64,000 nucleotides of DNA from an uncultured Planctomycetaceae bacterium (GCA_964427875.1 CAYRVX010000003.1:46910-110909); one strand, 5' to 3'; numbered from the stretch's first letter, positions 26,304 through 43,252 are shown. Notes: generated by a model from the sequence alone, not told the origin. A program made the numbers and translations.

Positions 26304-26349
26304 TGACCTGCCGCACGCCGCAAACTCCGCTGCTTCCAGGAATGGCGAG

Positions 26350-27876
26350 ATGATGGTGTCGATCAAACACTTGCCGCCGGAGGCGCTGTCGGCCCTGGTG
26401 GACGCTTCGGCGGCGATCAACTCCGCCCTGGGTCTCGACGAGACGCTGGCGGCGATTGCGCGCGCGGCCGCGTCGGTGATGCGGGCCGAGGCTTCCAGCG
26501 TTATTGTCCTGGACGAGACCCGCGGCAAGCAGGTGTTCCGGGCGGCCGTCGGTGACCGCGCCGATCAGCTCCAGGGCCTGGCCTACGATCGGGCTCTGGG
26601 CATCTCCGGCAAGGTGCTGGTGAGCGGGGAGGCCGAGATCGTTAACGACGTCTCCAAGGAGCGGTCCCATTACCACGAGATCGACGCGCTGGTGGCGTTC
26701 GAGACCCGCAGCCTCATTGCCGCCCCCCTGATCAACAAGGGCCGGACCCTCGGCGTCGTCGAGGTGCTGAACCCGGTGCAGTCCGAGCTGTTCGCCGAAG
26801 AGGACAGGCAGTTGTGCAAGGTCTTTGCCAACCTCGCGGCCATCGCGATGGCCAACGCACAGCTCTACGACCGCATCCAGCGCGAGAACGACCAACTGAA
26901 GCAGACCTACCAGCCGGCCGAGGAGATCGTCGGCATCTCCGCGGGAATGGAGAACGTCAGGAACCTGATCCGCCGGGTCTCGCGCTCGTCGGCCACCGTC
27001 CTGCTGCTGGGCGAGACGGGCACCGGCAAGGAGATCGCCGCCAGGACGGTCCACGCCGAGTCCGACCGGGGGGGCAAGCCCTTCGTGGCCATCAACTGCG
27101 CGGCCCTGCCGGAGACGCTCCTGGAAAGCGAGCTCTTCGGACACGAGGCGGGGGCGTTCACCGGAGCGGTGGAACGAAAGCTCGGCCGCTTCGAGCTGGC
27201 CGAGGGAGGCACGCTGTTCCTCGACGAGATCGCCGAGGTGGCCCCGAGCATCCAGGTGACGTTGCTTCGGGCCCTCCAGGAGAAGGAGATTGTCCGGGTC
27301 GGCGGCACGGAGACGATCGGGTGCGACGTGCGGATCGTCGCGGCGACCAACCGCGACCTCGCCGAGGAGATGAGGGCCCACAGGTTCCGAGAGGACTTGT
27401 ACTACCGGCTGAACGTCTTTCCGATCGAGATCCCCCCCCTCCGGGAACGGAGAGAGGACATCCCGCTGCTGGTGGACCACTTCATCCGTCACGTGGCGTC
27501 CGAGATGAAGATGCCCGTGCCGATTCTCTCCCCCGAGGCCATGACGGCACTGACGCAGTACGATTATCCCGGGAACATCCGGGAGTTGCAGAACATCCTG
27601 GAGCGGGCGTGCCTGCTGTGCTGCCGGATGGACGGCGCCTGGCCGCGGCCCCAGCCGATCGGGCCGGAGCACCTCCCGAGGGAGTTGGCCGGCGAGATCC
27701 AGCCGGGTGCCCCCGGCGAGTCGGCCCTGGCGGCCTCCGAGAAGGGCATGATCGTAAAGGCCCTCCGCGAGAACGCCTGGAACCAGACCAAGGCGGCCAG
27801 GGCCCTCGGCATTACCCGCGACAACATCCGCTACCGGATCCGCAAGTACAAGATACAGCTCCCCCAAAAGGGCTGA
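26350..27876 (+). CDS. Sigma-54-dependent transcriptional activator (GAF sensor + AAA+ sigma54-interaction + Fis-type HTH)
   Basis: GETGTGKE Walker A, the GAFTGA sigma54-contact motif, ELFGHE, and a C-terminal HTH ([22 protein letters not shown]). An N-terminal GAF domain. Start at MMVSIKHL. Confidence 0.88.
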
Positions 27877-28225
27877 GCGCGTCCTGCCTGCGGGCACGTC
27901 TGCCACGATGGCCCCCGACGACAGATCGTAAAGTCTTTGCTGTAAGTAGCCTGACCTGATTCCTGTCCCGGGCGCCCGGCCCCCTTGCGATTCGCTCGTC
28001 GCTCCCTATCTCCTTGCCCGCGGCTGATTTGAATCGTACTGTTGCTTGTGGCAGCAAGCCGGGCTCCGCGTTACGAAGGCCGGGGTCCTCCGGAGCTTCT
28101 CTCTGAGGCGCCTCAAGAAGCGCCCCCATTGCACCTGCGTGGCGGATCCAGTGTGGATTCCCCGTATTTCGTGCTTTCATCAAGACTTGGCGTTTGGTGC
28201 ACGCATACGCCCCAGGAGTGACCAA

Positions 28226-31200
28226 GTGAGCAATCTGAACTGGCAGCCGCCGCTGTTCGAGCAAATGGAGCCCCGTTTGCTGCTCAGCGCTTCACCGGTG
28301 CCGGAGGAGATCGACCTTCCGGCCTTCAGTGAGCAGTGCGTCACGGGCGGCCTCGACGTCGGCGAATCGCAGATGTACGTCTTCACCGCGGCGGCCAGCG
28401 GGTACGTCTACATGAACATGGGGGCCGCCGAAGGCAGCGGGGTCGATTCCTACCTGGAGGCCTTCAACTCCGGCCTGCGCAGGATCGCCCGGAACAACAA
28501 CGCCAGCAGGTACACTCAGGACAGCCGGATCCGCCTGCGCGTTAGCACGGGGCGCACGTACTACGTCCGCGCGAGGGGCGCCGCAGGAACCGATGGCGAC
28601 TACGAGCTGACGCTCACCAGCCGGCCGTACGACGACTACGGCAACACCGCCGAGGCGGCCAGGGCCCTGCGGGTCCGCCGGAGCGGCTCGACGTCGGCTC
28701 GCGGCAGGATCAACTGCGTCGGCGACACGGACTGGCTGTCGTACACGGCCCGCGACGACGGCCTGGTGCGTGTACGGATGCTCGCCTACGGCCGAGGTAA
28801 CAAGCTGGTCGGCTCGCTCGGCGTCTACGACGCCGCCGGCAACCTCATCACCAGCCAGGTCGCAGAGGAGAGCCACTGGTTCGAGCTGAGCTTCTCGGCG
28901 CTCAAGGGGCAGACGTATTACCTGGAGGCCTCCGGCGGGGAGAACACCACGGGCAGATACCTGGTCAAGGTGCTGCCGATGATCCTTCAGGAGTTCATCG
29001 ACGCAGAGGAGGTGGACCTTCCTGCCTTCAGCGAGCAGTCCGTCACGGGCGGCCTCGACGTCGGCGGGACCCAGATGTACAAGTTCACCGCGACGGCCAG
29101 CGGGTACGTCTACCTGAACATGAAGGCCGCCGAAGGCAGCGAGATCGACTCCTATCTGGAGGTCTTCAACCCCGGCCAGCGGAGGATCGCCCGGAACAGC
29201 AACGCCAACAGGTACACTCAGGACAGCCGTATCCGCCTCCGCGTTCGCGCGGGGCGCACGTACTACGTCCGCGCGAGGGCCGCCGGAGGGACCGAGGGCG
29301 ACTACGAGCTGACGCTCACCAGCCGGCCGTACGACGACTACGGCAACACCGCCGAGGCGGCCAGGGCCCTGCGGGTCCGCCGGAACGGCTCGACGGCGGC
29401 GCGGGGCAGGATCAACTGCATCGGCGACACGGACTACTTCTCGTACACCGCGCGGGGCAGCGGCCTGGTGCAGGTGCAGATGATCGCCTACGGCCGATGG
29501 AACAAGCTGTCCGGCATGCTCAACGTCTACGACGCCGCCGGCGACATGATCGCCAGCGATCACGGCGGCGTGGGCGGCACGTCCGCCCTGAGCTTTTCGG
29601 CGGTTAAGGGACAGACGTACTACATGGCGGCCTCCAGCGACGACAACAGCACGGGCAGATACCTGATGAAGGTGCTGCCGATAATCCCGCAGGAGTTCAT
29701 CGACGCGGAGGAGGTGGACGTCCCGGCCTATGGCGAGGAAACCGCCGCCGGCGCCCTCGACGTCGGCGGGACCAAGATGTACAAGTTCACCGCGGCGACC
29801 AGCGCGTATCTCTATCTGGACATGGCCGCCGCCGACGGAAGCGCGATCGACTCCTACCTGGAGGTCTTCAACTCCGCCCGGCGCAGGATCGCCCGGAACA
29901 ACAACGCCAGCAGGTACAATCGGGACAGCCGGGTCCGCATCCGCGTTCGGGCCGGCCAGACCTACTACGTCCGCGCCAGGGCCGCCCGGGGAACCGAGGG
30001 CGACTACGAGCTGACCTTCACGAGCCGGCCCAACGACGACGCGGGCAACGACATCGATCACGCCGCGTACCTTCAGCTCGAAAGCGACGGCTCCCGCCAG
30101 GCCCACGGGAAGGTCAACTATGCCGGCGACATCGACGTGCTGGAGATCGTCGCCCCCGTGACCGGCGAGATGACCGTGACGGCTGCGGCGCCCGGCGGGG
30201 ACGGCAGCATCACGCCGAGGCTCCGGGCCGATGACTCCACTGGCGAGCAACTGGTGATCGACGAAGACGGCGACGCCGCCTGCACCGTCACGTTCGGCGT
30301 GGTCGAGGGCGAGACGTACTACCTGAGGATCGCCAGCCTGGACGACAACACGGGCCGGTACGAGCTGATGGTGTCGACCGACACGGACGTCGATCCGGAC
30401 CCGGCCCCCGACCCCGACCCCGACCCGGACCCGGTTCCGCCCGACGATCCCACGCCGGGCGAGCTCGTCACGGGATGGATCAGCGAGGAGCCGGGCGGCT
30501 ACCGGCTGATCGTCGCCGGGACCGACAGCAGCGACATCATCACGCTGAGCGTCAGCGGCTCGGTGACGACGCTCACCTACGCCAGCGGCTCACTCGACTT
30601 CGCCGGCGTCTTCGACGACATCTCGATCTACGGCTTCGGCGGCGACGACGTGATCCGCATGGACTACTCGATCGCCGGCTCGGGCATCGTCTACGCCGGC
30701 GAGGGCAACGACACGGTATACGACAACAGCCTCGGCGCCGCAGGCGTGTACGGCGGGGCGGGCGACGACCTGCTGATCAGCCTCGGCGGCGGCGTGGACA
30801 GCCTCTGGGGCCAGGCGGGCTGCGACAGCTTCTGGGTGGACATGGGCGACTCGCTCGGCGACGCCGACTCCGCCGAGTACGACGCGACGGCCGTCCACCG
30901 AATCACTCAGTTCTATCAGCCCTACTCCGCGGTCCCCGGCTCTGCGGATTACGTCTCGATGGAGATCGCCGGGCAGAACTTCCGCGACCCCACACCCACC
31001 AGCTACGGGCGAGCGTGGGTGAACTTCGCGAGCAACCCGCTCTTTGCCGACGGGCCGGAACACAACGACATCCGCCAGGGCTCGGTAGGCGACTGCTACT
31101 TCCTGGCGTGCCTGGCCAGCATGTCCGACAGCGACCCGAACGTGATCCGCCAGATGGTGACGGCCCTGGGTGACGGGACGTACGCGGTGCGGTTCTTCCG

Positions 31201-31714
31201 CGGCGGTCAAGCCTCCTACCTCCGACTCGACGCCGACCTGCCCGTCTACTCCGGCAGCAGCCTCAGCTACGCCAAGCTGACGCCGGACGGCGAGACCTGG
31301 GTGGCGATCGTCGAGAAGGCCTACTGCCATTTCCGGTACGGCCAGAACTCCTACGCCTCCATCAGCGGCGGGTGGATGAGCACCGTCTTCCAGGAGATGA
31401 CCAACCGGCCCACCACCACCATGTGGACGGGCGGGTCGCAGGCGTCCCTGGCGAGCTTCATCATCTCCGCCCTCGACAGCGGGCACGCGGCCACCCTCGG
31501 AAGCTACGGTAACGCCCCCTCGCCGATCGTCGGATCGCACGCGTACATGCTCAAGTCGATCGAGTTCGTCGAGGGCGAGGCGATCGTGACGGTCTACAAT
31601 CCCTGGGGAGTGGACGGAAAGACCTACGACAGCAACTACAGCGACGGCCTGTTGAGGCTCGACCTGTCGCAGGTGCAGGCTTGCTTCTCGGCCATCGTCA
31701 TCAGCCTGGCATAG
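28226..31714 (+). CDS. Giant secreted protein: 3 tandem units of paired PPC (pre-peptidase C-terminal)-like domains + Asp/Pro linker + RTX-type Ca-binding repeats + calpain-like (C2) cysteine protease domain
   Basis: GTG start with RBS AGGAG 7 nt upstream. The N-terminus carries PPLFEQMEPRLLLSA. Three ~236-aa repeats each hold the PPC-like signature GDTDW/YxSYTA...YDAAGN...GQTYY. A linker reads PDPAPDPDPDPDP. Gly-Asp repeats GFGGDDVIRMD / GEGNDTV / GGAGDDLL. Calpain motifs QGSVGDCYFLACLAS (Cys), SHAY (His), NPWG (Asn). Confidence 0.78.
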   Translation: MSNLNWQPPLFEQMEPRLLLSASPVPEEIDLPAFSEQCVTGGLDVGESQMYVFTAAASGYVYMNMGAAEGSGVDSYLEAFNSGLRRIARNNNASRYTQDSRIRLRVSTGRTYYVRARGAAGTDGDYELTLTSRPYDDYGNTAEAARALRVRRSGSTSARGRINCVGDTDWLSYTARDDGLVRVRMLAYGRGNKLVGSLGVYDAAGNLITSQVAEESHWFELSFSALKGQTYYLEASGGENTTGRYLVKVLPMILQEFIDAEEVDLPAFSEQSVTGGLDVGGTQMYKFTATASGYVYLNMKAAEGSEIDSYLEVFNPGQRRIARNSNANRYTQDSRIRLRVRAGRTYYVRARAAGGTEGDYELTLTSRPYDDYGNTAEAARALRVRRNGSTAARGRINCIGDTDYFSYTARGSGLVQVQMIAYGRWNKLSGMLNVYDAAGDMIASDHGGVGGTSALSFSAVKGQTYYMAASSDDNSTGRYLMKVLPIIPQEFIDAEEVDVPAYGEETAAGALDVGGTKMYKFTAATSAYLYLDMAAADGSAIDSYLEVFNSARRRIARNNNASRYNRDSRVRIRVRAGQTYYVRARAARGTEGDYELTFTSRPNDDAGNDIDHAAYLQLESDGSRQAHGKVNYAGDIDVLEIVAPVTGEMTVTAAAPGGDGSITPRLRADDSTGEQLVIDEDGDAACTVTFGVVEGETYYLRIASLDDNTGRYELMVSTDTDVDPDPAPDPDPDPDPVPPDDPTPGELVTGWISEEPGGYRLIVAGTDSSDIITLSVSGSVTTLTYASGSLDFAGVFDDISIYGFGGDDVIRMDYSIAGSGIVYAGEGNDTVYDNSLGAAGVYGGAGDDLLISLGGGVDSLWGQAGCDSFWVDMGDSLGDADSAEYDATAVHRITQFYQPYSAVPGSADYVSMEIAGQNFRDPTPTSYGRAWVNFASNPLFADGPEHNDIRQGSVGDCYFLACLASMSDSDPNVIRQMVTALGDGTYAVRFFRGGQASYLRLDADLPVYSGSSLSYAKLTPDGETWVAIVEKAYCHFRYGQNSYASISGGWMSTVFQEMTNRPTTTMWTGGSQASLASFIISALDSGHAATLGSYGNAPSPIVGSHAYMLKSIEFVEGEAIVTVYNPWGVDGKTYDSNYSDGLLRLDLSQVQACFSAIVISLA
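28290..30410 (+). repeat. Three tandem ~708-bp intragenic DNA repeats (high nucleotide identity) encoding the PPC-like domain pairs
   Basis: Near-identical strings recur at ~28320, ~29020 and ~29725 (ccttcagcgagcagtccgtcacgggcggcctcgacgtcggcgg...). The protein repeats share >70% identity. Confidence 0.7.
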
Positions 31715-31751: not shown

Positions 31752-31800
31752 GGCCGGCCCCGTGCCCCTGGCATCGGGGCCGGTTGCTACCGGGGTTTTT
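31752..31800 (+). terminator. Candidate intrinsic terminator downstream of the giant protease gene
   Basis: GC stem ccggcccc/ggggccgg with a 14-nt loop, then ...ccggggttttt a few nt later. The geometry is imperfect. Confidence 0.3.
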
Positions 31801-31904: not shown

Positions 31905-34900
31905 GTGCGACGGATTGCTGTGATCTGCGCGGGGGCCATGCTGGGCTCGTGGGCCCTGGCGTCGGCCGCTGAAAGGCCCGGACGCGACGACGTGGTCCGC
32001 GCGCTGCTCAAGCGCTCCCGGCTGCTCGAGGATGTCCGCTTCACCGTCCCCGGGAGTCTGTATCGGGAGTACCTCCGCATAGCGTCGGTCGGCGAGGCGA
32101 TGTTCCCGGCGCCCGTGGCGAGCATCGCCGGGAACGGGCGATACCACCTGGCGCTCGATGCAGCCGGCAGGCCCGCGCTCGTTGCGACGGTGGCCCTTCG
32201 GGTCTTCAAGCCGCGGCGATGCCGGAACCTCCCCGTTCTCACGGCCGAGTGGGCGTGGGAGAAGGTCGCGGTGAACGGCGCCCCGGCCTCTCTTGCCGCG
32301 AGAAAGGGGTGGCTGCGCTTCACCCCGAGGAAGGCGGGCCGGTACGTCGTCTCCGGACAGATCGGACTCAGCAAGGGCCGCGCCGACGGCGGCAAGGTGT
32401 CCTTCGGCATTCCCAGAACGGTCCGGACGTCTTTGCGGTTCGACTCGCCCGGCCGATGGCGGGTGGCCGTGTCCGGCTCGCCGCACAGGCTCCTGGGGCA
32501 GGCGCCCGGCGGCACGCACGGCGAGCTGGCCGTCACGCCGCGAGAGCGCATCGAGGTGGAGTACACCCGTCCGGTCGAGCTGCCCCCCCGGCCGCCGCGG
32601 TACGAGCTGCGCGGCGCGACGGCGTGGAACCTGGACGCCGGGCGCCAGCAGATCGCCGCGAGATTGCGCGTCCGCATCCTCGGCGGGCGGACGGATCGGC
32701 TCATCCTGCAACTGCCCGCCTCCGCCCGACGCGTCACGATCACCGGCCCGGACGTTCGCGAGGCACAGGTTTCGCCCGCCGGTGCGGCGATCTTCCTGCG
32801 AGGGACCATCGCCGGGCAGACGCGTCTGACAGTGGGCTACGAACTGCCCCTCGGCGCGGGCAGCATCCAGCGCCTCGGGCGCCCGGAGCTGGCGGACGGC
32901 CGCTGGTCCGGAGGGACGCTGGCCGTCACCAACACCGCCGGGGCCAGCGAAATCCTGCCCCATGCCGTCCGCGGGCTGCGGGAGATACACCCGGAGGACC
33001 TGCCCGCCGAGGCGAGGGGCATGCTCGCCGGCAAGTGCGTGCTGGCCTACCAGATCACCTCCCGCTTCTTCTCCGCCGCCGTGGACGTCGTGGACCTGGG
33101 GGAGTTCGCCCTTCGCGAGTCCATCGCCGACCTCGCGCATTACCGGCTCCTGCTTCGCCCCGACGGGTCCGTTCTGTGCAAGGTGGACTACGAGATCCGC
33201 AACCGCAGCCGGCAGTTCCTGAGGCTCCACCTGCCTCGCGGCGCCCGCGTGCTGGTGGCCCGCGTGAACGACAAGCCCAGGCCCCTGACGCCCCTGCTGG
33301 ACGAGCCGGGCGCCCACCTCCTGCCGCTGGTTCGCTCGCAGGCCTCGGTCAAGGGGCTGGTGAGCTTCCCGGTTCAGATCGTCGTATTGATGCGCGGCAA
33401 GGCGCTGCGGCGAGAGGGCCTGGCGGCCGTGCCGCTGCCGCGAATCGACCTGCCGATCGCCTACGGCTGGTGCGAGCTGCACGTCCCGCGCGACATGGCG
33501 GTTGACCGGTGGGCCGGGCCGATGCAGCACGTCGAGCGATACTCCAGCGAGACGGCCGTCGCCAGCCTCACCTACGGCCGCGCCGAACTGGCCGAGGGAT
33601 ACAAACTGGAGGACCGCCCGACTGTCGAGGCGGTCCCCGAAGGCCAGCCGCAGCGCAGACCGAAGCGCCCCCCCCCGCCCATAGCGCTGGCCAAGCCGCC
33701 GGAACTGAAGCCGACGAGGCCCACAGAAGAACCGGCCAGACCGTTCGGACCCGCCACGCAGCCGGCGGCCACGGAGATCCTTGCCACGAAGGTGACGGTC
33801 CCCGAAGGCGGCACGCTTATCCTCGGCGGGCAGGTGATGCTGTCACGCAACTACTACCGGGCCGGCAGGGACTACTACGAGCGAGGCGACTACGACAAGG
33901 CCGCAATCTCCCTGGAGAACACCCTTCGCATGGCCCCGAAGAGTGCCGAGGCCGCCAATGCCGCCCGACTGCTGGCCAACATCAAGGCGGTCCGGGGCAA
34001 GCTGGCCGCGAAGAGCCGCCAGGAGAAGGCCCTCACGCGGCAGGTGAAGAAGGAGATCTCCGGCCTGAACGTCAAGCTGGAGCAGCAGCAGCGTGAGCTG
34101 ATCGAGCAGGCCGGCGAGGCGGTCCGTGGCGGCCGGCGCGATGAGGCGGCCGCCGGCTATCAGGCCGCCGTCTCGCTCGGCGAGCAGCTCATCGCTCGCG
34201 GCGCCGACGAGAGGGAGCAGTCCGTTCGTCTCCGCGACGCCAAGGAAGAGCTCGACAGGCTCCAGAAGCAGAAGCAGGCAAGAGCGACCCAACTGCGGAC
34301 ACGATACGAGGTCCTCAAGACGGCGGGGCAGTACGGAGAGGCGCTGAAGATCGGCAAGGCGCTCCAGGAGGTCTACGAGGACAAAGGGGAACAGCAGCGC
34401 CTTCGTGGCGAGCTCGAGGAGCTGGCCGCCACGACGGTGCGGGACAAGGCGCGGCATGGGGCCACCATGGCCGTCCAGGCGGCGACCGAGGTGTTCACAC
34501 TCGAACATGCCGAGGCTCGATCAGTCGCCCGCGTGCTGAGCGAGATGTTTGCCGGACGAGGGCAAAGGGGATCAGCAGCGCGTTCGTCGCGCGGGCCGAG
34601 CACTGGGCGCGATCAGAGGGTGACCATCACCGCGGATGAGACGGCCAACGCGTTGGTTCTCACCGCCCCACCGGGTCAGCGGGACAAGATCGTGGAGCTG
34701 CTCCAGCAGTTGGACGCCGCCGACTCCGACGCCAACACCGAGCGGATCACGGCCGAAGGCACATCGGGCTTCCTCCCGGCCGCCCCTCGGAACATCCCGG
34801 CCCTCAAGCTTCACGCGAGCGAGCTGCGCGAGCAGAAGAAGCACGCCGATGCCCTTGCCGTGGCCGGGCACGTTCTCCGGATGGCCCCGGCCGACGACTG

Positions 34901-36149
34901 GGCCAAGGGAGAAGTCAAGGAGCTTCAGCGAATCCTGCGATCGAAAGACGGGAGGCTAGCGCAACTCGGCTTGTTAGACTCGGCCTCCTTGCGCACTCCC
35001 GCACGCCGGCCGGACCTCAGGGCCGTCACGAAGACGTACGACGTTCGCGACTTGGTCTTCGGCGGGGGCGAAGCCGGCCGGCCGAGCGCGGGGGCAGGTG
35101 ACGACAAGCCCCGGGAGAAGGTGGCCGAGGACCTGGTCAGGACGATCCGCGGGGCCCTGGGCAGGGAAGTCGTCCTCGGCGACGCTGGTATCCAGATCTC
35201 CAACGGCAGGCTTGTCGTGAGCGCGACCGGCGGTGGCCAGAAGCTCGCGGCCGACCTGTTCACGAGGCTTCGGGACATCCGCGGGCCGCAGGTCGAGGTG
35301 GGCGGCAACATCGCCCAGCAGAGGGCGGCCGGACTCGTCCGGGCCCAACGCGACGTCAACGGCGACGGTATCGACGCGCCGGTGGCGGCCGCGTACCGCC
35401 CGAAGCAGCTCGCCGAGCAGCGGGAGTTCCAGGAGTTCCTGAGGCGAAACTACGATTGGGAGGTCGAGGCCCGACGGGCGGACGGCGGCTGGAAGTATGG
35501 CCGGTCCATGTCGAGCTATCTGCCGGCCCTGGACAGCTCGGGGCAGGCCCGGCGGTCGAGGGATCCGGCCAAGGTCACGCACGAGATAGCGGGCAAGTTG
35601 CTGATGAATGTGGGCCAGAAAGTGGCGGTCAACAGCACGAACATCTCTCTGGGTTCCGCGGCCGCCAACGCGTTGGGCATCCACTTTGCCGAGGGCCGCA
35701 ACGACATCCGCTACGCCGTCGTGGACGAGGCCCAGTTGCGGACGCTGCGCGAGATGGAGGCCCGGCGGCCGGGCGAGGGCAGGCCGGTCGCCGCCAACCC
35801 GCGGTTCCAGGAGACCATCGTCGGCACCGACGCGCTGCTGGCCAGCGGGCAGGTCGCCAACGTCACCTTCGCCGGCGACCGCGGCAACACGATCGACATC
35901 TACAGCAACCCGATCGCCCTGACGCACGAGAAGTACGTTCTGATCGACAACCACGACTACCTCACGGCCGTGCAGACCGGCCAGATGCAGCACTGGACCC
36001 AGCGGGCCAAGCCCCTCCGGTTCGCGGAGGTCCCTCAGGACATCGAGGTGCCCCGCGTGGGACGGCTGGTGAAGCTCGAGAAGACACTGATCAAACCGGC
36101 GGACGCACTGACGATCCGCGCCGAGTACACCTGGACTGGAAAGGAGTAG
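31905..36149 (+). CDS. Giant (1414 aa) secreted protein: N-terminal unknown beta-rich domains (paralogous to the next gene), Pro-rich linker, TPR-like helical region and a secretin-N-like (type II/III secretion 'short') domain
   Basis: Signal MRRIAVICAGAMLGSWALASAA. A YEIRNRSRQFLRLHLP...LLPLVRS...FPVQIV block shared with the 36154 gene. TPR-like RNYYRAGRDYYERGDYDKAAISLENTLRMAP. A secretin-N motif VTITADETANALVLTAPPGQRDKIVELLQQLD. No secretin beta-barrel C-domain seen. Confidence 0.6.
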   Translation: MRRIAVICAGAMLGSWALASAAERPGRDDVVRALLKRSRLLEDVRFTVPGSLYREYLRIASVGEAMFPAPVASIAGNGRYHLALDAAGRPALVATVALRVFKPRRCRNLPVLTAEWAWEKVAVNGAPASLAARKGWLRFTPRKAGRYVVSGQIGLSKGRADGGKVSFGIPRTVRTSLRFDSPGRWRVAVSGSPHRLLGQAPGGTHGELAVTPRERIEVEYTRPVELPPRPPRYELRGATAWNLDAGRQQIAARLRVRILGGRTDRLILQLPASARRVTITGPDVREAQVSPAGAAIFLRGTIAGQTRLTVGYELPLGAGSIQRLGRPELADGRWSGGTLAVTNTAGASEILPHAVRGLREIHPEDLPAEARGMLAGKCVLAYQITSRFFSAAVDVVDLGEFALRESIADLAHYRLLLRPDGSVLCKVDYEIRNRSRQFLRLHLPRGARVLVARVNDKPRPLTPLLDEPGAHLLPLVRSQASVKGLVSFPVQIVVLMRGKALRREGLAAVPLPRIDLPIAYGWCELHVPRDMAVDRWAGPMQHVERYSSETAVASLTYGRAELAEGYKLEDRPTVEAVPEGQPQRRPKRPPPPIALAKPPELKPTRPTEEPARPFGPATQPAATEILATKVTVPEGGTLILGGQVMLSRNYYRAGRDYYERGDYDKAAISLENTLRMAPKSAEAANAARLLANIKAVRGKLAAKSRQEKALTRQVKKEISGLNVKLEQQQRELIEQAGEAVRGGRRDEAAAGYQAAVSLGEQLIARGADEREQSVRLRDAKEELDRLQKQKQARATQLRTRYEVLKTAGQYGEALKIGKALQEVYEDKGEQQRLRGELEELAATTVRDKARHGATMAVQAATEVFTLEHAEARSVARVLSEMFAGRGQRGSAARSSRGPSTGRDQRVTITADETANALVLTAPPGQRDKIVELLQQLDAADSDANTERITAEGTSGFLPAAPRNIPALKLHASELREQKKHADALAVAGHVLRMAPADDWAKGEVKELQRILRSKDGRLAQLGLLDSASLRTPARRPDLRAVTKTYDVRDLVFGGGEAGRPSAGAGDDKPREKVAEDLVRTIRGALGREVVLGDAGIQISNGRLVVSATGGGQKLAADLFTRLRDIRGPQVEVGGNIAQQRAAGLVRAQRDVNGDGIDAPVAAAYRPKQLAEQREFQEFLRRNYDWEVEARRADGGWKYGRSMSSYLPALDSSGQARRSRDPAKVTHEIAGKLLMNVGQKVAVNSTNISLGSAAANALGIHFAEGRNDIRYAVVDEAQLRTLREMEARRPGEGRPVAANPRFQETIVGTDALLASGQVANVTFAGDRGNTIDIYSNPIALTHEKYVLIDNHDYLTAVQTGQMQHWTQRAKPLRFAEVPQDIEVPRVGRLVKLEKTLIKPADALTIRAEYTWTGKE

Positions 36150-36153
36150 AACG

Positions 36154-38154
36154 ATGAAACGAACGGTAGTGGCGGTAGCGGCTGTCCTGATCGCCGCGGG
36201 GGCCTGCGGGCCCGCGCTCGCCGAGGCGCCGAAGCTCGGCGAGGGCAAGGGGCAGGTCACGTTGAGCTGGGACGAGTTCGTGAGGATCACCGGCTACGAC
36301 CCCGCGAAGAAGGGCTCACAGGTGCTCACCATCCCCTGGGCGCAGGTGGAGGACCTCACCGGGCTGAAGGTGGACGGCGCCATGAAGGGCGCCACCGTGG
36401 ACCTCAAATGGGGCGAGTTCCGCGCCCTGCTCGAGTGGTCGATCAAGCGGAAGGACGAAGTGCCTCCGCCGGCCGACTACATCGTCACCTCCAGCCGGTA
36501 CACCGGCAGCCTCTCCGATGACGGCGCCGCCTTCAAGCTCGCCGCGAAGATCAACATCCTCCGCAAGAAGGGCTGGAAGAAGGTCCCCATCCTCCCGGTC
36601 ACCGTCGCCCTGACCAAGACCGAGCTTCCCCAGGGGGTCTTCCTCAACGCCACGGGGACGAACTACGAGCTGCTCACCGACCAGTCGGGACCCATCGACG
36701 TGAGCATCGAGTTCTCCGTGGCCGTCAACAAGAGCGCCGGCATCAACCAGGTTGGCTTCAAGCGAGTATTGGCCGGCTCCAGCGTGCTGGACCTGACCAT
36801 CGCGCGCGAAGAGGTGGACGTGAAGGTGGCCGACTCGCAGTCGCTGGTGAGCAAGACCGTGAACAAGCAGACGCAGGTGATCGCGGCGGTGCCGTCGAAT
36901 GCGGCCGTCGCCATCTCGTGGGAACGCGCGCTGCCCAAGGTGGCGGCCGCGCCGACGAAGCTCTACGCCGAGGTCGGCACGCTCGTGGCCGTGGCCGAGG
37001 GAATGCTCCTCTGCCAGGAGGTGGTCAACTACAACATCCTTCACACGGCGGTGCGCGAGTTGAACCTCCAGGTGCCCGCGGGCGCCAGCGTCCTGACGGC
37101 AAGCGGCTCGAACTTGCAGGACTGGCGCGTGGACAATGACGGCAAGCTCCAGGTGGTGCTCAAGGCCGAGGTCATCGGCAGCTACACGCTGCGGATCACC
37201 TACGAGCAGGCGAGCAAGGCGGGGGCCGAGACGCCCGTGATCCACCCGGTCGGCGTCGAGAGGCAGCGCGGGTACGTCGGCGTGGTGGCCGTCGCCAACG
37301 TGGAGATCGCCGCCGGAAAGGTGGACGCCGCCACCGCCATCGACGTGCGCCAACTGCCCGCCGACATCGTCTCCATGACCAATCAGCCGATCCTGCTGGC
37401 CTTCCGCTACCTGGGCGAGCAGTTCAAGATCCCGCTGACCATCAAGAAGCACGCGGAGGTCGGCGTCCTCGTGACGATCGTCGACAGCGGCGTCTTCACG
37501 GCCATGCAGCTCGCCGACGGGCGGAGGATCACCAAGGTCATCTACTCCGTCCGCAACAACCGGAACCAGTTCCTTCGGCTGAAGATGCCCGAGGCCTCGG
37601 AGATCTGGTCGGTCTCGGTCAGCGGCAACACGGTCTCCCCGGCCAAGGACGAGGCCGGCAACGTCCTGGTGCCCCTGGTGCGGAGCTCGGGCGGCGCCCA
37701 GGAGCTGGCGGCCTTCCCCGTCGAGATCGTCTACGTGGAGACGCCCAAGGCCCAGGTGCCCGAGCGAGGCCAGATCCACGTCGAGCTGCCCGCCTGTAGC
37801 GTTCCCGTCGTGCACGTGATGTACAGCTACTACGCGCCGGCGGAGGGCAAGTACACGGTCGGCTGGGGCGCGAGCGGCTTCTCCGGGCCGCTTCAGGTGG
37901 TCGAGGAGTTCACATCGCTGGCAACCGGCGCCGGCCGGCAGATCGTCCGCCTCGACGCCACCAAGCAGGCCAAGCAGATGCAGAAGGCCTTCGACGCCCG
38001 CGTGGACGCCAAGGCGAAGGCCGCAGGGGCCACGCCTATCCGCGTCCGCCTGCCCATCAACGGCAAGCTGTTCAAGCTGGAGAAGATCCTCGTCCTGCCG
38101 AACGACAGGCTGTACTTCGACCTCCAGTACAGGGACTGGAAGGTCCCGAAATAG
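36154..38154 (+). CDS. Secreted 666-aa protein, paralogue of the N-terminal ~550 aa of the preceding giant protein (unnamed domain family)
   Basis: Signal MKRTVVAVAAVLIAAGACGPALA. It shares the YSVRNNRNQFLRLKMP...VLVPLVRS...FPVEIVYVE block and upstream beta-strand pattern with the 31905 gene. It starts 5 bp after the 31905 gene's stop. Confidence 0.55.
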   Translation: MKRTVVAVAAVLIAAGACGPALAEAPKLGEGKGQVTLSWDEFVRITGYDPAKKGSQVLTIPWAQVEDLTGLKVDGAMKGATVDLKWGEFRALLEWSIKRKDEVPPPADYIVTSSRYTGSLSDDGAAFKLAAKINILRKKGWKKVPILPVTVALTKTELPQGVFLNATGTNYELLTDQSGPIDVSIEFSVAVNKSAGINQVGFKRVLAGSSVLDLTIAREEVDVKVADSQSLVSKTVNKQTQVIAAVPSNAAVAISWERALPKVAAAPTKLYAEVGTLVAVAEGMLLCQEVVNYNILHTAVRELNLQVPAGASVLTASGSNLQDWRVDNDGKLQVVLKAEVIGSYTLRITYEQASKAGAETPVIHPVGVERQRGYVGVVAVANVEIAAGKVDAATAIDVRQLPADIVSMTNQPILLAFRYLGEQFKIPLTIKKHAEVGVLVTIVDSGVFTAMQLADGRRITKVIYSVRNNRNQFLRLKMPEASEIWSVSVSGNTVSPAKDEAGNVLVPLVRSSGGAQELAAFPVEIVYVETPKAQVPERGQIHVELPACSVPVVHVMYSYYAPAEGKYTVGWGASGFSGPLQVVEEFTSLATGAGRQIVRLDATKQAKQMQKAFDARVDAKAKAAGATPIRVRLPINGKLFKLEKILVLPNDRLYFDLQYRDWKVPK

Positions 38155-38453
38155 GGCATGGTTCAAACATGCGCAGCCGGTAGCCGAAGCGGCCAGGGCC
38201 TTGGCACATTTGTGAGCCCAAGATCCGAAGGTCGTTGCCGGCTGCCGGCTGCCGGCTGCGCTGGTCTCGTGGCGACCGGTCCGTTACCGCCGAGCCGACT
38301 GCAACCAAACACTGACCCCTGCTGAACCAACCCCGAATCACCCCCGGCAAAATCTTGCGCCCGCCCTCGTAAATGCCTATTTCACAGGTGTTTATAGACG
38401 CAATCGCCCAAAATGGCTTTGTTTCGTAAAAAGACTTATGCCGGACCATTCGC

Positions 38454-38498
38454 AGCCACAAAGGTCACAAAGGTCACAAAGGTCACAGAGGTCACGGG
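38454..38498 (+). repeat. Tandem 9-mer (aggtcacaa) x4-5
   Basis: gccacaaaggtcacaaaggtcacaaaggtcacagaggtcacgg. An inverted partial copy aagtgaccg lies at 38511-38519. Confidence 0.8.
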
Positions 38499-38542
38499 GT
38501 AGATAACTCAAAGTGACCGATTCGCCAGCTTCCCGGGAGGTG

Positions 38543-38732
38543 CTCGTTGACTCGTGAATTCGTTAACTCGTTGATTCGTCAAGAACTCCGCCCTGGCCAC
38601 TCGGCGGATTCGTTGCACGACCCATGGCAGCCGGCACAGCTTCTCAGTTGCCGAGCCAGCAAAGCAAAGCCCAACATCTCTTCGGGCAATATCTTTCCAG
38701 TTAACGAGTTAACGAATTAACGGATCAACGGG
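38543..38732 (+). repeat. Pair of ~28-bp inverted repeats (cgttgactcgtgaattcgttaactcgtt / aacgagttaacgaattaacggatcaacg) bracketing ~130 bp: a MITE-like or protein-binding element
   Basis: Arm 1 at 38543-38572. Arm 2 at 38703-38732, which is the reverse complement with 2-3 mismatches. The arms are built from cgtt(a/g)a(c/t)tcgtt sub-repeats. Confidence 0.6.
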
Positions 38733-39080
38733 CAACCCGTAAGCCAATCAGGATCGGTCAGTTTGAGTAGATAAGATATCGAAATGGCGTGCTTTTGCAA
38801 ACGCGCAACGGACAGAGTGTTCTCTCACGGCCCCGAGCGTTTCTGTCGTAACCGCCTGCAAAATCATAACCTTTGTGTTCTTTGTGCCCTCTGTGGCGAA
38901 CAATCCGCGTTTGGCTTCGTTTCGCGTTTTTCTTCTGATCCGCCGCCTTCCTTTTCCTTGTGATCACGATCCCCCCGTAGCAGGCATATACATCTCGCAG
39001 CCCTTTTTGCACAACGAAAATCGCCAGATTGCAGAAAAACTTCCGGCCGCGCCCGCCGGCAAGGGCGGGCGTAGGCTGAA

Positions 39081-39233
39081 GGTCGTAGGTCATAGGTCGT
39101 AGGTCGTAGGGCAGACCGTGGGACCGGATACCGTGGGGCCGTGGGACCGGATACCGTCGGACCGCAAGACCGTGCCACCGGATACCGTCAGACCGGCAAT
39201 CGTCCTCGTCGTCGTCCTCGTCCTCGTCCTCGG
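39081..39233 (+). repeat. Consecutive micro/minisatellite blocks: (ggtcgtag)x4, a ~23-bp unit (ccgtgggaccggataccgt) x3, and (cgtcct)x5
   Basis: Read directly: ggtcgtaggtcataggtcgtaggtcgtagg; gaccgtgggaccggataccgtggggccgtgggaccggataccgtcgg...ccgtgccaccggataccgt; cgtcctcgtcgtcgtcctcgtcctcgtcctcgg. Confidence 0.8.
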
Positions 39234-39246
39234 CCGTCTCTTCTCG

Positions 39247-39450
39247 GGGTTCCGAGTTCCGGCCTCCTCGGGGGCAGGCGGCCGTGCCGGCCGCCGTTAA
39301 ACGCTCCGCGCCTCCCTGCCCGGTAGGCAGCCTCCGGGTTCCGAGTTCCGAGTTCCGACCTCTTCGGGGCCAGGCGGCCGTGCCGGCCGCCGTTAAACGC
39401 TCCGCGCTCCGGGCTCCGGGTTCCGAGTTCCGCCTTCCCGGTTCCCGCTT
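39247..39450 (+). repeat. ~96-bp-period direct repeat (2 full + 1 partial copies), each with the perfect palindrome ggcggccg-tgc-cggccgcc and (gttccga)n
   Basis: Copies at 39247-39311 and 39337-39407 (gttccgagttccg.cctc.tcgggg.caggcggccgtgccggccgccgttaaacgctccgcgc). A partial copy sits at 39416-39450. Confidence 0.75.
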
Positions 39451-39454
39451 GCGA

Positions 39455-39500
39455 CTTCGTCATTCGTCATTCGTCATTCATCATTGATCATTCGGCATTG
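39455..39500 (+). repeat. Tandem heptamer (tcgtcat) x3 with degenerate copies (tcatcat, tgatcat, tcggcat)
   Basis: cttcgtcattcgtcattcgtcattcatcattgatcattcggcattg. Confidence 0.8.
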
Positions 39501-39739
39501 CTTCTCCCTTGCTTCCCCCGCCCCGCGCGGTATCCTGAATGAGACAAAAGGGCCTGCCGCTCACCGGGCGGCCGTCCGGGCAAAGCGGCAGGAACCAACG
39601 GGGCGGTGAGTGTGTCCCGCTCGCCATCATGAAAGCGTTATCTCGTTCATCCGTTCACTCGTTCACTCGCGGTCGCGGAGACGCCCGCGCAGGGCCGACG
39701 CGCTGATTCCGGGCACTCCTCGACCGTCGCCCCCGACTG

Positions 39740-42244
39740 CTAGGTGCTGATCTCGGTGACTAGGCCGACTTGCTGGGCAATGGGCGTATACAGATCCACC
39801 TCGGTTGCCGGGGTGCTGATGGTGATGATCAGCGCGTATCGCGTCTGCTTCTCGACGAAGCCCAAATGCTTGCGCTCGCGCCACCAACCGGTGACGGGGG
39901 ACACGGCTACCTGCCCGCACTGCGCAACGTAGCTGGCAGGCGCTGTCCACCAGTCCGAATGAATCGAGCCACGTGTCTGGAGCTTCGCACCGATCGTCCA
40001 GTCGATCGGATCGCTTGTAGACGGTCGGGCTTGCTCTTCTTCCCATTCCTGGCTGCTGATTCGCTGACGGAATTGCCTCTCCGTTTCGATCGGCCCTCGG
40101 AGTTTGAATCGCAGCCCATGAGAGGCATAACGGAACTTCCTGCGCCATCCCCGACGGCCGGGACTCGGCTCGACGAAATAGGAAAGCGTAATCCGAACAG
40201 TCACGTCTTGCTGGTGAAGGGCCTCCAGGGCAGCCCTCGGCCACGGCAACGAGTGGAGGACAAAGTGATTCGTCTTTGCCTTGGTGCCATCCAGCTTGAA
40301 TGGCTGAATCGCCCCCTGATGGATAAGCGACACGCAGTTCTCGACGGTATACCTGGCGCGCTCAAGGTTCGGTACGCCGTATCCGAAACAACGCAGGCGA
40401 GCATGACGTTCGTCCTGCCGGTTGCCGCGAACCTGACGCAGCATCTCGCCGGTCCACTCAGCCGAGTGGACGAGGAGGCCCCGAACCGTTTCCGGCCAGA
40501 GCTCGGGATAGTCGGCCATCAGGATGGCCGCAAGCCGGGCGGCCTGGGCAGTCGCGGCGCTCGTGTCGCCAGTCCATGTCAGCAGCCGACCCGTCGGGTC
40601 GAGTGAAGTGGTGAGCAGTGATAGATCATCGCAGCCGTCGATCTGACCCCCTGGTGATTGGGCGTAGTTGCCGCCTTCCATAACGATGTCCGGCTTCAGT
40701 GGCCATCTTCGGTCGTCCCAAGCGCGAGACGTGCGACTGGTCGGACAGAGGCCGCCTAGCGGCGCCACCGCCTGGTAGCCGTCGAAACCTATTGAGCTTA
40801 TCCGCACACGCTCCGTGAAGGCACCTACCGTCAAGGCATTCCAGCTCTGGCCGGGGTCCTCGATGCCGTTGGATGAGAGGTTGGTCTCGGGGTACGTATA
40901 CGAGGGATCCGTTGTGACATCACGGATGTTCCCGGCGGCGACCACGTACAGCCGCTGATGGCCGTCACGCTGACCCGCTGCGTGCTGGTCAATGGCCCCG
41001 GACCAGGAAGTCGGGCAACCGTGATCTCTACCCATATCAGCGGCTGTGATCGGAAGGCAGGCGACACGGCTGCGCTTGGGAGCTTGGGTCTCGGCCATGG
41101 CCAAGCTGGCTTGAGTGACGTAGCCCCATGAGTCCTCGGGGTGTGGCCGGGCGCTGTGGAGCATCCGAACGGACTCCAGGCGGTGCAGGAGTGCATGTGC
41201 CTCGGTGTTCCTAAGCAGGTCGGCAAGATGGTCGCCGAAGATGGCCAGGCCAGCGATCTCCGTACCATGGGCCTCGGCATGGTCGACCACCGGCCACGTC
41301 GGGTCCAAAGCCTGCGCGTCCTCGTCCGCAATCAACGGGCGCAATAGCGGGTGGGACGTATGCACGCCATGGTCGAGCAAACACACAGCCGGTGCGTCGG
41401 CGTGCGGCAAGACCAATCGGCCGACCAAGTCCTGGACGAACTCCCGCTGTTCCCGGGCTTGCAGGCGAAGGAACTCCGTGGGCACTTCCTTCGCCCGTCG
41501 TAATTCTGCGAGTCGATCAAGTAGCGGAACGAAGACTCGCGTCCATTGCGCGGGTGTTCCGAAGGCAAGGAAAACAAGGCGTTCAGGGAACGGAATGACG
41601 TGCTGACTCAGTTGCAGCTGAGTGTCCGCCGTTGCAGCTACAAACTCGGCGAAAGCCGAATCTGGGTCTTCATCTGCCGCAACGCGAATCCAGACCTCCC
41701 ACCAGATGGCTTGGTTCTCAGTAGCTGGGTATAGGCTCTCGTCGTCGGTCCAGAATGATGCGAGAACTGGGAAACGAATGCCGCTGATACCGGTGACCAG
41801 GTCTTCGTTCTTTGGGCGGCCGGATGGATAGCCTTCCGTTGGTGCCGTATTCTCGGTTTCGTACCGCTCGATCTTGCGAACGTACTTCTCGAGTTGCCCG
41901 TCGGGGACGTAGACCGTCGCGTGCAGACGGCCGTCATGGACTCGTGTGGAAAGCACTTCCACTTCAGGGCGGAGCTTTCTGTTCTCAAGGCTTTCGATCT
42001 TGAGGTCATACTTCCGCACGTCTTCGCCAACGACCTCAAGACACAGATCGCGTATGACATGGCCCGACTCACCGGCAAGGGATTTCGCATCTTCCACGGC
42101 CTTCTCTACGTCACCGATCAACTTCCGAGCATGGGCGCGTCGGTCACGCGGAGGCATTCTGAATTCACCTCCGCCCCCGGGCGGCCTGGTGTAGTTACGG
42201 GCCTGTCCGGGCTTCGTGATGAGAACATGTCGATGTCGCGCCAT
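39740..42244 (-). CDS. Subtilisin-like S8 serine peptidase, large (834 aa), IetS-like
   Basis: Catalytic-residue contexts LLDHGV (Asp), HGTEIAGLAI (His), VVAAGN (Asn) and GDTSAATAQAARLAAI (Ser). The gene has lower GC and different codon usage than its surroundings. Confidence 0.75.
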   Translation of the reverse strand: MARHRHVLITKPGQARNYTRPPGGGGEFRMPPRDRRAHARKLIGDVEKAVEDAKSLAGESGHVIRDLCLEVVGEDVRKYDLKIESLENRKLRPEVEVLSTRVHDGRLHATVYVPDGQLEKYVRKIERYETENTAPTEGYPSGRPKNEDLVTGISGIRFPVLASFWTDDESLYPATENQAIWWEVWIRVAADEDPDSAFAEFVAATADTQLQLSQHVIPFPERLVFLAFGTPAQWTRVFVPLLDRLAELRRAKEVPTEFLRLQAREQREFVQDLVGRLVLPHADAPAVCLLDHGVHTSHPLLRPLIADEDAQALDPTWPVVDHAEAHGTEIAGLAIFGDHLADLLRNTEAHALLHRLESVRMLHSARPHPEDSWGYVTQASLAMAETQAPKRSRVACLPITAADMGRDHGCPTSWSGAIDQHAAGQRDGHQRLYVVAAGNIRDVTTDPSYTYPETNLSSNGIEDPGQSWNALTVGAFTERVRISSIGFDGYQAVAPLGGLCPTSRTSRAWDDRRWPLKPDIVMEGGNYAQSPGGQIDGCDDLSLLTTSLDPTGRLLTWTGDTSAATAQAARLAAILMADYPELWPETVRGLLVHSAEWTGEMLRQVRGNRQDERHARLRCFGYGVPNLERARYTVENCVSLIHQGAIQPFKLDGTKAKTNHFVLHSLPWPRAALEALHQQDVTVRITLSYFVEPSPGRRGWRRKFRYASHGLRFKLRGPIETERQFRQRISSQEWEEEQARPSTSDPIDWTIGAKLQTRGSIHSDWWTAPASYVAQCGQVAVSPVTGWWRERKHLGFVEKQTRYALIITISTPATEVDLYTPIAQQVGLVTEIST

Positions 42245-42262
42245 GGGAACTCCCCGATCGGT

Positions 42263-43252
42263 TCACCTTGGTTTCCCACCGGAACGCCCACGTTGGGATA
42301 GAGCACGCTTCAGTTCGCTGGTCAGTATCTTCCGGCGTCCGTCGAGAACCGCATCTTTTGCCGCCTCTTCGCATGCCTTCACGATATCGGCGTGGGGCAT
42401 GCCTTTCGCCGTGTCCAGGATCGACCGCCAGCCAAGACGCCGAATGTCGAAGCTGCTGAGTCGGTTCTCGACGAGCCTCCGGGCCATGGTCGCAGTGGGC
42501 AATCCGTAGCGCACCGTGTCATCGAAGCGCCGGAACAGCGCCGAGTCGAGCGAGCCCTCGAGGTTGCTGGCCGCGATGATGAGCCCCATCGAGTCATCTT
42601 GTTCGAGGAAGATGAGGAATGAGTTGAGGACACGCCGGATCTCCCCGACATCATGTCCGCCATGACGATGAGCCCCGATAGCGTCGAACTCGTCGAACAG
42701 ATACACGGCGCGAGACTGCTTCATGGCGTCGAAGACAAGGCGGAGTTTGGCCGCTGTTTCGCCCATGAACTTCGTGATGAGTGTATGAAACTGAACCGTC
42801 AGGAGCGGCAAGCGCAGCTCACCGGCCAACGCGGCAGCCGTCATGGACTTCCCGCAGCCAGGCGCCCCAAGCAACAACAGCTTCCGGCGGGGAACAAGGC
42901 CGTGCGTGTGCAGACGGTCGACTTGGCGGTACTCGACCAGGACACGGTCGAGGCGCCGCTTCAGTTCGACCGTCAGAACCATGTCTGCCAGATGCGTATT
43001 CGGGAATGTGGCGGCGAAGAGACCGCTTAGCTCCCCCGTCGGCTGAGCAATTGGAACGGATTTCAATGGCGCTGGCTGCGCGGCTTGCATGCGACGAGCT
43101 TCGTCCACAAGGTGCCGAAGCTCTTCGGCGAGCTTCTTCTTCCCAGTTCTGGCCGCGTGTGCGGCGATCTGAGAGGCAACGGACAAGAACCGCTCCGGAT
43201 CTCGCTCCGTGTAGCTCTCGATCAGTGCTTTAACTTGTTGGGCTGTGGCCAT
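42263..43252 (-). CDS. AAA+ ATPase (classic AAA family), IetA-like
   Basis: Walker A LLLLGAPGCGKS, Walker B VYLFDEFDA, and sensor/arginine-finger region IIAASN...LDSALFRRFD. It ends 19 nt upstream of the S8 peptidase start, giving a two-gene operon. Confidence 0.8.
   Translation of the reverse strand: MATAQQVKALIESYTERDPERFLSVASQIAAHAARTGKKKLAEELRHLVDEARRMQAAQPAPLKSVPIAQPTGELSGLFAATFPNTHLADMVLTVELKRRLDRVLVEYRQVDRLHTHGLVPRRKLLLLGAPGCGKSMTAAALAGELRLPLLTVQFHTLITKFMGETAAKLRLVFDAMKQSRAVYLFDEFDAIGAHRHGGHDVGEIRRVLNSFLIFLEQDDSMGLIIAASNLEGSLDSALFRRFDDTVRYGLPTATMARRLVENRLSSFDIRRLGWRSILDTAKGMPHADIVKACEEAAKDAVLDGRRKILTSELKRALSQRGRSGGKPR

Follow-up and report, generated by a model that had tools for sequence, protein, structure and literature searches.

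A coupled pair of exported paralogues in an uncultured Planctomycetaceae bacterium, one of them carrying secretin-type N domains without a barrel

We analysed a stretch of 64,000 nucleotides (the window) from an uncultured Planctomycetaceae bacterium (GCA_964427875.1 CAYRVX010000003.1:46910-110909) and describe here two adjacent genes within it, A and B, which together occupy positions 31905-38154. The window has a GC content of ~67%, and true genes were recognised by a GC content at third codon positions (GC3) above 0.82. An earlier reading of the same DNA, made before any database search and referred to below as the sequence-only reading, had placed open reading frames at 31905-36149 and 36154-38154. 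Both are present on the plus strand with the GC3 of genuine genes (0.88 for A and 0.95 for B, compared with only 0.53-0.71 for the overlapping shadow frames), and by codon-position GC both A and B are real genes. They belong to a plus-strand series of four high-GC3 genes at 26275-27876, 28046-31714, 31905-36149 (A) and 36154-38154 (B). The features of the pair are as follows, with lengths in amino acids (aa) and the basis of each assignment in brackets:

31905..36149, plus strand: gene A, 1414 aa counted from its GTG start, an exported protein
31905..31970, plus strand: signal peptide of A, MRRIAVICAGAMLGSWALASA, followed by AE (by inspection)
32022..33557, plus strand: shared tandem beta-sandwich module of A (aa 40-551), with the motifs RNRSRQFLRL and LPLVRS (hhalign, BLASTP)
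33582..33779, plus strand: proline-rich linker of A, 24% Pro (composition; little conservation among homologues)
33786..33833, plus strand: short motif of A resembling the secretin C-domain, TKVTVPEGGTLILGGQ (likeness to the conserved C-terminal strand of secretin barrels)
33849..34454, plus strand: TPR-like repeat(s) of A, then a long charged helical coiled-coil-like region (aa 649-850; sub-threshold Pfam matches, composition)
34485..34721, plus strand: Secretin_N domain, GspD N3-like, in the lineage-variable part of A (Pfam, phmmer, AlphaFold)
35007..35312, plus strand: second secretin-type N domain of A (A 1035-1136), family-wide (AlphaFold, motifs, hhalign)
35565..35999, plus strand: conserved C-terminal alpha/beta plus beta domains of A (aa 1221-1365; conservation, AlphaFold)
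36033..36128, plus strand: C-terminal hairpin motif of A, PQDIEVPRVGRLVKLEKTLIKPADALTIRAEY (BLASTP match to the C-terminus of B)
36154..38154, plus strand: gene B, 666 aa, an exported protein, translationally coupled to A
36154..36222, plus strand: signal peptide of B, MKRTVVAVAAVLIAAGACGPALA, followed by EA (by inspection; homologues are also hydrophobic at the N-terminus)
36256..36453, plus strand: three mini-repeats at the start of mature B, each made up of a short strand and a 'W-x-(E/Q)-(F/V)' helix (aa 35-100; sequence inspection)
36379..37926, plus strand: shared tandem beta-sandwich module of B (aa 76-591; hhalign alignment to A)
38035..38130, plus strand: C-terminal hairpin motif of B, PIRVRLPINGKLFKLEKILVLPNDRLYFDLQY (invariant residues, AlphaFold strands)

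Gene A ends with a TAG stop codon at 36147-36149, followed by AACG and the ATG start codon of B at 36154, which leaves a spacer of 4 nt instead of the 5 bp counted previously. The Shine-Dalgarno sequence of B, AAGGAG, is located within the last codons of A, and at most other loci the stop and start codons of the two genes overlap. The database copy of A (P0121) starts from the ATG at 31938, 11 codons later, and has 1403 aa; the GTG start used here yields a better, canonical signal peptide. A JGI metagenome contig carries a protein 100% identical to A. Both signal peptides are of the Sec type and end in an AxA site, with a positively charged n-region in A and a basic one in B, and each represents the sole hydrophobic segment of its protein (in B, the sole strongly hydrophobic one). 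Beyond the signal peptides, neither A nor B contains a membrane segment, a lipobox or a barrel.

The two proteins share a large part of their length. BLASTP aligned A 254-548 with B 291-588 at 28% identity (E 2e-24), and a second collinear match covers the final 32 residues of each protein (E 0.002). Comparison of the two family profiles with hhalign gave a probability of 100% (E 1.6e-40) over 501 columns, pairing A 40-551, numbered on the 1414-aa protein, with B 76-591. The hhalign and BLASTP extents therefore delimit a shared block of ~500-515 aa plus a C-terminal hairpin. This bears out the collinear region of ~550 aa proposed by the sequence-only reading, whose paralogy survives proper alignment and whose motifs are found in both proteins (YEIRNRSRQFLRLHLP / YSVRNNRNQFLRLKMP; LLPLVRS / LVPLVRS). 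By these alignments, A and B are true paralogues, with a likeness far past chance similarity. In the hairpin of B, residues P628, P634 and G637 are invariant among 34 diverse members of the wider superfamily described below, and AlphaFold places strands at 638-647 and 654-660 with a predicted local distance difference test (pLDDT) of 87-89. Profile searches matched neither B nor the shared block to any Pfam or NCBIfam family, in line with the previous statement that the domain belongs to no named one.

We detected 308 homologues of B; the 120 listed share 57-96% identity, are nearly all ~660-715 aa long and come from Planctomycetota, Phycisphaerae and Brocadiia metagenome-assembled genomes (MAGs), where every one is annotated as hypothetical. 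Such identity across Planctomycetota classes shows strong constraint on B, as expected of a structural core. Two of its three N-terminal mini-repeats fall outside the region common to A. Residues W39, F42, W62, W86 and F89 of these repeats are invariant in 50 homologues, and the AlphaFold confidence over them is low (45-58).

In A, an insert of ~820 residues separates the body from the hairpin, so that A is extended relative to B, as had been noticed. The insert comprises, in order, the proline-rich linker, the TPR-like and coiled-coil-like helices, the GspD-N3-like Secretin_N domain, the second secretin-type N domain and an alpha/beta region. Across the A family (~100 homologues), an N-terminal block of ~840 residues (body, linker and TPR-like/coiled-coil region) and a C-terminal block of ~370 residues are conserved at 35-60% identity, and the middle region between them varies by lineage. 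Among 101 homologues, this variable middle contains Secretin_N in ~20 and STN in four, and it also holds PATR, VWA_3, extra TPRs and secretin C-domain fragments. The TPR repeats named by the sequence-only reading are a candidate assignment. In A, TPR_2, TPR_6 and TPR_9 all remain below threshold (17.5 bits for TPR_2, cut-off 27), but homologues exceed it at the equivalent position (29.7 bits in P0133, for example), and the region falls within the conserved N-terminal block (~aa 1-840). The best-conserved part of the C-terminal block, aa 1221-1365, is modelled with a pLDDT of 88-95 and has no Pfam family match.

The presence of a secretin-N domain in A, first suspected from a motif, is supported by profiles. 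Pfam Secretin_N (PF03958) matches A 861-939 with 57.3 bits (E 1.8e-15; cut-off 28.2 bits), the motif VTITADETANALVLTAPPGQRDKIVELLQQLD at A 906-937 (nt 34620-34715) lies within this match, and in a phmmer search of PDB sequences the domain matched N3 of GspD/XcpQ (E 3e-8). In an AlphaFold model of A 840-1414, built from a 23-sequence alignment (mean pLDDT 70.5), the Secretin_N domain in the 34.5-34.8 kb segment forms a beta-alpha-beta-beta-alpha unit with pLDDT > 90. A second unit of the same fold is modelled at A 1041-1126 (pLDDT 82-90). Beyond it, the model has helices, one alpha/beta domain and one small beta domain, each predicted with confidence, and a C-terminal tail of low confidence. 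It is this second unit, not the Secretin_N domain, that is kept across the A family (YDVRDL, NGRLVV and LRxARGPQV in 50 homologues). By hhalign, it is homologous to the pre-barrel domain of a genuine secretin (P0191, residues 1280-1421) at a probability of 98.6% (E 6e-16).

The homology between A and P0191 ends at the point where the barrel would begin. No match to the PF00263 Secretin family was found in A at E<=1, in agreement with the earlier statement that this gene has no secretin C-domain barrel, and the NCBIfam models stayed below their cut-offs, with 26.7 bits for GspD (cut-off 351) and 16.1 bits for PilQ (cut-off 284). We also considered a hidden or degenerate barrel in the C-terminal block and rejected it: just one of 23 members had a weak PF00263 match (E 0.071), and the hhalign alignment stops before the barrel. 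The motif TKVTVPEGGTLILGGQ occurs in just 10 of the 101 A homologues, at differing positions; in P0133, the equivalent segment grows to 57 residues that match Pfam Secretin positions 103-159 (E 7.6e-8). The only homologue with a full secretin barrel is P0191 itself (L068:4692-9890). This protein is 100% identical to P0139 through residue 1277 and then continues as a different, complete secretin, the switch being located at the STN/'YDVxDL' domain, and no B gene lies 3' of it. We consider P0191 a probable assembly chimera or else the product of natural recombination between genes of the A and secretin types, which have this domain in common. On account of the identity switch and the missing B, we rejected it as proof of a full-secretin variant and therefore used it solely to show domain homology. 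Having two secretin-type N domains and no barrel, A therefore has the periplasmic 'ring-building' portion of a secretin without its outer-membrane barrel, and this architecture is the norm for the A family, not an accident of this genome.

The AlphaFold model of B (50 sequences, mean pLDDT 77, predicted template modelling score 0.37) shows an all-beta chain of several sandwiches with one helix and the terminal hairpin. The top eight PDB matches to this model in Foldseek are all OST1/ribophorin I (E 4.5e-8 to 7.7e-7). The alignments extend over ~420-440 columns, nearly all of OST1, with both tandem sandwiches collinear, while non-OST1 folds reach only ~200 columns at E ~1e-4. The root-mean-square deviation is large and the TM-score low because domain orientations differ. 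Structure prediction, which had been proposed as a check of the shared block, thus returned a tandem beta-sandwich whose closest solved fold is ribophorin I/OST1. At the sequence level, profiles of 50 close or 34 diverse members found nothing among PDB chains at E<=10, and PF04597 (Ribophorin_I) matched none of the 34 diverse members at E<=10. Candidate links of the shared block to a solved structure or to a Pfam family, including Ribophorin_I, VIT, DUF4139 and BatD-type domains, were accordingly set aside. Reports of OST1 based on sequence searches are confined to eukaryotes, TACK archaea and Asgard archaea (PMC11417166). With a fold match and no sequence match, we therefore treat the OST1 resemblance as a lead and not as membership.

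The shared module extends well beyond A and B. An exhaustive profile search returned 4,975 cluster representatives (clusters at 50% identity) at E<=1e-3, 1,687 of them at E<=1e-30, and six sampled members had no Pfam domain. Members of this superfamily come from bacteria of the Planctomycetes-Verrucomicrobia-Chlamydiae (PVC) group, Omnitrophota, Acidobacteriota, myxobacterial-type MAGs and Altiarchaeales; the Altiarchaeales member P0295 has close homologues in Altiarchaeales, Omnitrophota and Deltaproteobacteria MAGs. The superfamily takes three forms: soluble B-like proteins that end directly after the hairpin motif, proteins with a single module followed by transmembrane helices, and Verrucomicrobiota proteins of 2,000-2,600 aa with two modules and several transmembrane helices (P0232, P0236). 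These giants carry a PulG/DUF1559-like pseudopilin segment inserted just before the hairpin. Throughout the superfamily the hairpin motif closes the module, often immediately before a transmembrane helix. In another lineage (L070:2122-11936), two overlapping genes repeat the layout of A and B: the first encodes a large paralogue of 1960 aa, with a faint match to T2SSG at the same insertion point, and the second a smaller one of 1311 aa. The arrangement of body, insert and hairpin and the pairing of paralogues recur in other branches and are therefore old features, and, to judge from their domain matches, the inserts have repeatedly been recruited from type II secretion and type IV filament systems. 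No type II secretion genes were found beside the giant P0236 (L069:10001-16948), a gene that stands alone with no secretion genes, nor beside one Acidobacteriota relative.

In a locus scan restricted to one genome per species, 63 loci were found, all of them in MAGs, with identities of 44-77% in Planctomycetota, 40-43% in Lentisphaerota and Verrucomicrobiota, and 32-36% in Myxococcota/'proteobacterial' bins. The closest named relative of A comes from a Phycisphaerae MAG. An A-type gene precedes B at all loci whose sequence reaches upstream (~65 loci). When all window neighbours were searched by tblastn against 67 related loci, A and B were present in essentially every one, and de novo clustering of all flanking open reading frames at the related loci recovered only A and B, with no recurrent third gene. 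Distant loci are flanked by housekeeping genes such as ribF and aroE. The interval 31905-38154 is thus an autonomous, translationally coupled two-gene module. Literature searches on this gene pair found nothing relevant.

One subclade (L019, L020, L024, L047, L049) shows a local synteny, with recO, a gene for a BamD/YfiO-like TPR lipoprotein, lptE and ftsH located ~3-6 kb downstream of B. This arrangement adjoins outer-membrane biogenesis genes and is confined to 5-6 loci.

Upstream of A, the window contains two plus-strand genes and, beyond them, a minus-strand cluster at 18184-26075:

26275-27876, plus strand: GAF-AAA-HTH sigma-54-type activator
28046-31714, plus strand: protein of 1222 aa whose C-terminal domain is a calpain-type (C2) cysteine protease (E 3.9e-23)

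The minus-strand cluster encodes a truncated SecA-like protein (671 aa), a PqqD-M50/HExxH-HlyD fusion (866 aa), a GAF-HlyD protein (780 aa) and an HlyD protein (304 aa). Against the NCBIfam daptide-protease model the fusion reached 164 bits, less than the cut-off of 300, and the combination of PqqD with signals of a protease for ribosomally synthesised and post-translationally modified peptides suggests that the cluster exports or matures a peptide. It corresponds to a published cluster of a secondary SecA_DEAD protein, a peptidase, HlyD and a sensory protein, described as a stand-alone type I secretion-like module. That module is known from Planctomycetes and Verrucomicrobia and is self-contained in its four genes, and A and B are not among its components (Kamneva et al. 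2015, PMC4452313).

The sequence-only reading had placed HlyD adaptors and a SecA paralogue next to A and had drawn a functional link from this adjacency. The genes are indeed present, but on the opposite strand and separated from A by the two unrelated genes listed above, and a terminator-like hairpin with a T-run lies at 31780-31793, between the calpain-like gene and A. By tblastn, SecA-like, HlyD, M50 and calpain-like genes were found at none of the 67 loci except the same-organism locus, so that the pair co-occurs with the HlyD/M50 operon at 0 of ~65 independent loci. Since the SecA-like, HlyD and M50 genes are absent from the other loci, the proposed link is unsupported; on the strength of tblastn, the neighbour clustering and the published module (PMC4452313), we rejected it. 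What stands of that proposal is a role in the envelope, which is plausible from the signal peptides and the lack of cytoplasmic-type domains. An 'envelope-spanning' role is unlikely because neither A nor B has a transmembrane segment or barrel.

The calpain-like protein has a LEPR-XLL-type N-terminal signal and a weak DUF2846 match, and it lies directly 5' of A only in this organism. Control of the pair through sigma-54 by the upstream activator was considered as well. No -24/-12 site with up to two mismatches was found in the intergenic DNA before the calpain-like gene or before A, the total matches of the site scan were below those in shuffled sequences, and just 2 of the 67 loci have a comparable activator close to the pair; we therefore rejected this candidate.

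Downstream of B, a non-coding stretch of 1.6 kb (38236-39670) is dense in short tandem repeats, among them CACAAAGGT x4.3 at 38457-38495, TGCCGGC x3.4 at 38236-38259 and a 96-bp unit x2.1 at 39248-39445. Just 3' of B lies an island of lower GC content (39740-44320; 60-62% GC, GC3 ~0.70) that carries an Iet anti-phage system, composed of an IetA-like AAA ATPase (E 3e-66) and an IetS-like subtilase (E 5e-26), with a Mrr-type restriction endonuclease beside them. The repeat stretch may mark the junction with this inserted defence island. A gene of the MotA/TolQ/ExbB proton-channel family follows downstream of the island at 44685-45506.

We hold the structural and organisational description of the A/B module with high confidence. 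As to its function, we propose that A and B form a periplasmic hetero-complex in which the ring-building and TPR parts oligomerise or dock on secretin/pseudopilin-type machinery, and we give this reading a probability of about 0.4. Adjacent, coupled paralogues commonly form hetero-oligomers, and A and B would pair via their paralogous bodies into a soluble complex in the periplasm. The hairpin of A would fold back onto its body across the insert; the hairpin is confidently placed in the B model and has low confidence in the fragment of A, which lacks the body. The secretin-type N domains and the TPR/coiled coil of A might then drive ring-like oligomerisation or, alternatively, might dock the complex on the periplasmic face of a type II secretion/type IV pilus-type machinery, by way of a secretin or pseudopilin. 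B would be the highly conserved core partner. The A/B module is separate from the neighbouring SecA-like/HlyD/M50 export cluster.

Several points weigh against this proposal. The putative pairing of A with B and the putative ring are deduced from paralogy, gene coupling and domain type. Secretin, pilin, ATPase and platform genes were found neither near the pair in the window nor at the ~65 related loci, and the link to type II secretion or type IV pili is therefore drawn from shared domains alone. The only full-barrel homologue, P0191, looks chimeric or recombinant. Finally, some homologues carry VWA_3 or autotransporter-type PATR repeats, which would fit an adhesin-like role equally.

A and B could accordingly be imagined to form a structure on the cell surface or outside the cell (an adhesin, a coat or an S-layer-like lattice, for example), in which the sandwich bodies would be the units that build or bind, with the secretin-N and TPR parts serving only for oligomerisation or anchoring. 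VWA_3 and PATR repeats are typical of adhesins and passenger domains, proline-rich linkers are common among surface proteins, and both proteins are exported without a membrane anchor. However, B, at 57-96% identity among its 120 listed homologues, is unusually conserved for a protein exposed at the surface, and the pair comes without any known signal for outer-membrane translocation, without a sorting domain and without a dedicated secretion gene. Many relatives are moreover anchored by C-terminal helices after the hairpin, which places the module by the cytoplasmic membrane, and we consider a surface location unlikely. The same anchored relatives lend themselves to another idea, namely that the shared module is a prokaryotic relative of ribophorin I/OST1 working alike, as a membrane-proximal, non-catalytic subunit that would hold substrates or partners for a translocon-, glycosylation- or polysaccharide-handling complex. 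The near full-length Foldseek matches, all eight of the best being OST1, speak for it, as does the topology that many relatives, including archaeal Altiarchaeales ones, share with OST1. It is nevertheless improbable: there is no sequence-level signal (neither a PDB chain nor PF04597 at E<=10), the root-mean-square deviation is large and the TM-score low, genes for STT3/AglB or a glycosyltransferase are not linked to A/B, and the two proteins have no transmembrane anchor.

Membership of A and B in the adjacent SecA-like/HlyD/M50 export system, as its periplasmic or outer parts, would agree with the position of this cluster within ~6 kb of the pair in the window, and with the GAF-bearing sigma-54 activator in between, a GAF domain being present in one of the HlyD proteins as well. 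Against such an assignment, SecA-like, HlyD and M50 genes stand beside A/B at none of the ~65 other loci, the four-gene SecA_DEAD module is self-contained (PMC4452313), and no sigma-54 -24/-12 site precedes A; with the divergent orientation, the two unrelated genes between and the terminator-like hairpin before A, we regard it as very improbable. We give even less credence to A being a decayed secretin gene that has lost its barrel, in a pair without current function. The secretin N domains without a barrel and the stray secretin C-domain-like fragment in A could be read in this way, but the reading frames are intact and long with a strong coding-type GC3, the A blocks are conserved at 35-60% identity in ~100 homologues, and the state without a barrel is the norm of the family.

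The folds found in A and B are known already; their combination, their pairing and the unnamed superfamily are without description in the literature searched. If the proposed periplasmic hetero-complex exists, uncultured Planctomycetota and their relatives would have a conserved envelope component in which secretin ring-building domains are reused without a pore. No such architecture has been described for the type IV pilus or type II secretion systems. The pair also offers a first anatomy, namely a beta-sandwich body and a closing hairpin with a permissive insertion point between them, for a superfamily that numbers several thousand sequence clusters and has neither a Pfam nor an NCBIfam model, and this anatomy would help to annotate many PVC, Omnitrophota and Altiarchaeales genomes. 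More speculatively, and in our view doubtfully, A and B may be the soluble paired form of a large unannotated envelope superfamily whose body is true kin of the OST1 fold, and may constitute a Planctomycetota periplasmic ring or scaffold machine with barrel-less secretin parts. Should the likeness to the OST1 fold be due to homology, it would be relevant to how that subunit arose. At present, A and B are a well-delimited, conserved pair with a proposed function.

Among known systems, secretins (GspD, PilQ, RcpA; PF03958 plus PF00263) share Secretin_N-type periplasmic domains with A. A differs from them in having no PF00263 barrel, S-domain or membrane insertion, in carrying its secretin-type domains as an insert inside an unrelated beta-sandwich module, and in being partnered with a paralogue free of secretin parts; the pair differs in having no type II secretion, type III secretion or type IV pilus assembly genes nearby, either in the window or at the ~65 related loci. 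The SecA_DEAD/HlyD/peptidase module (PMC4452313) is, like A/B, envelope-related and lies physically adjacent here, but its gene content differs and the two do not co-occur elsewhere. In comparison with the VIT domain and the N-terminal domain of M1 aminopeptidases, the shared module has no Pfam VIT or Peptidase_M1_N match and no catalytic domain, and it differs in its three to four sandwiches and its own C-terminal hairpin. The best structural match is ribophorin I/OST1 (PF04597), whose two tandem luminal beta-sandwich domains have the same fold as the predicted model. A and B themselves differ from OST1 in having no C-terminal transmembrane anchor, and no STT3/AglB, glycosyltransferase or oligosaccharyltransferase is linked to the pair among the related loci, whereas many superfamily relatives share the OST1 topology of a signal peptide, sandwiches and a C-terminal transmembrane helix.

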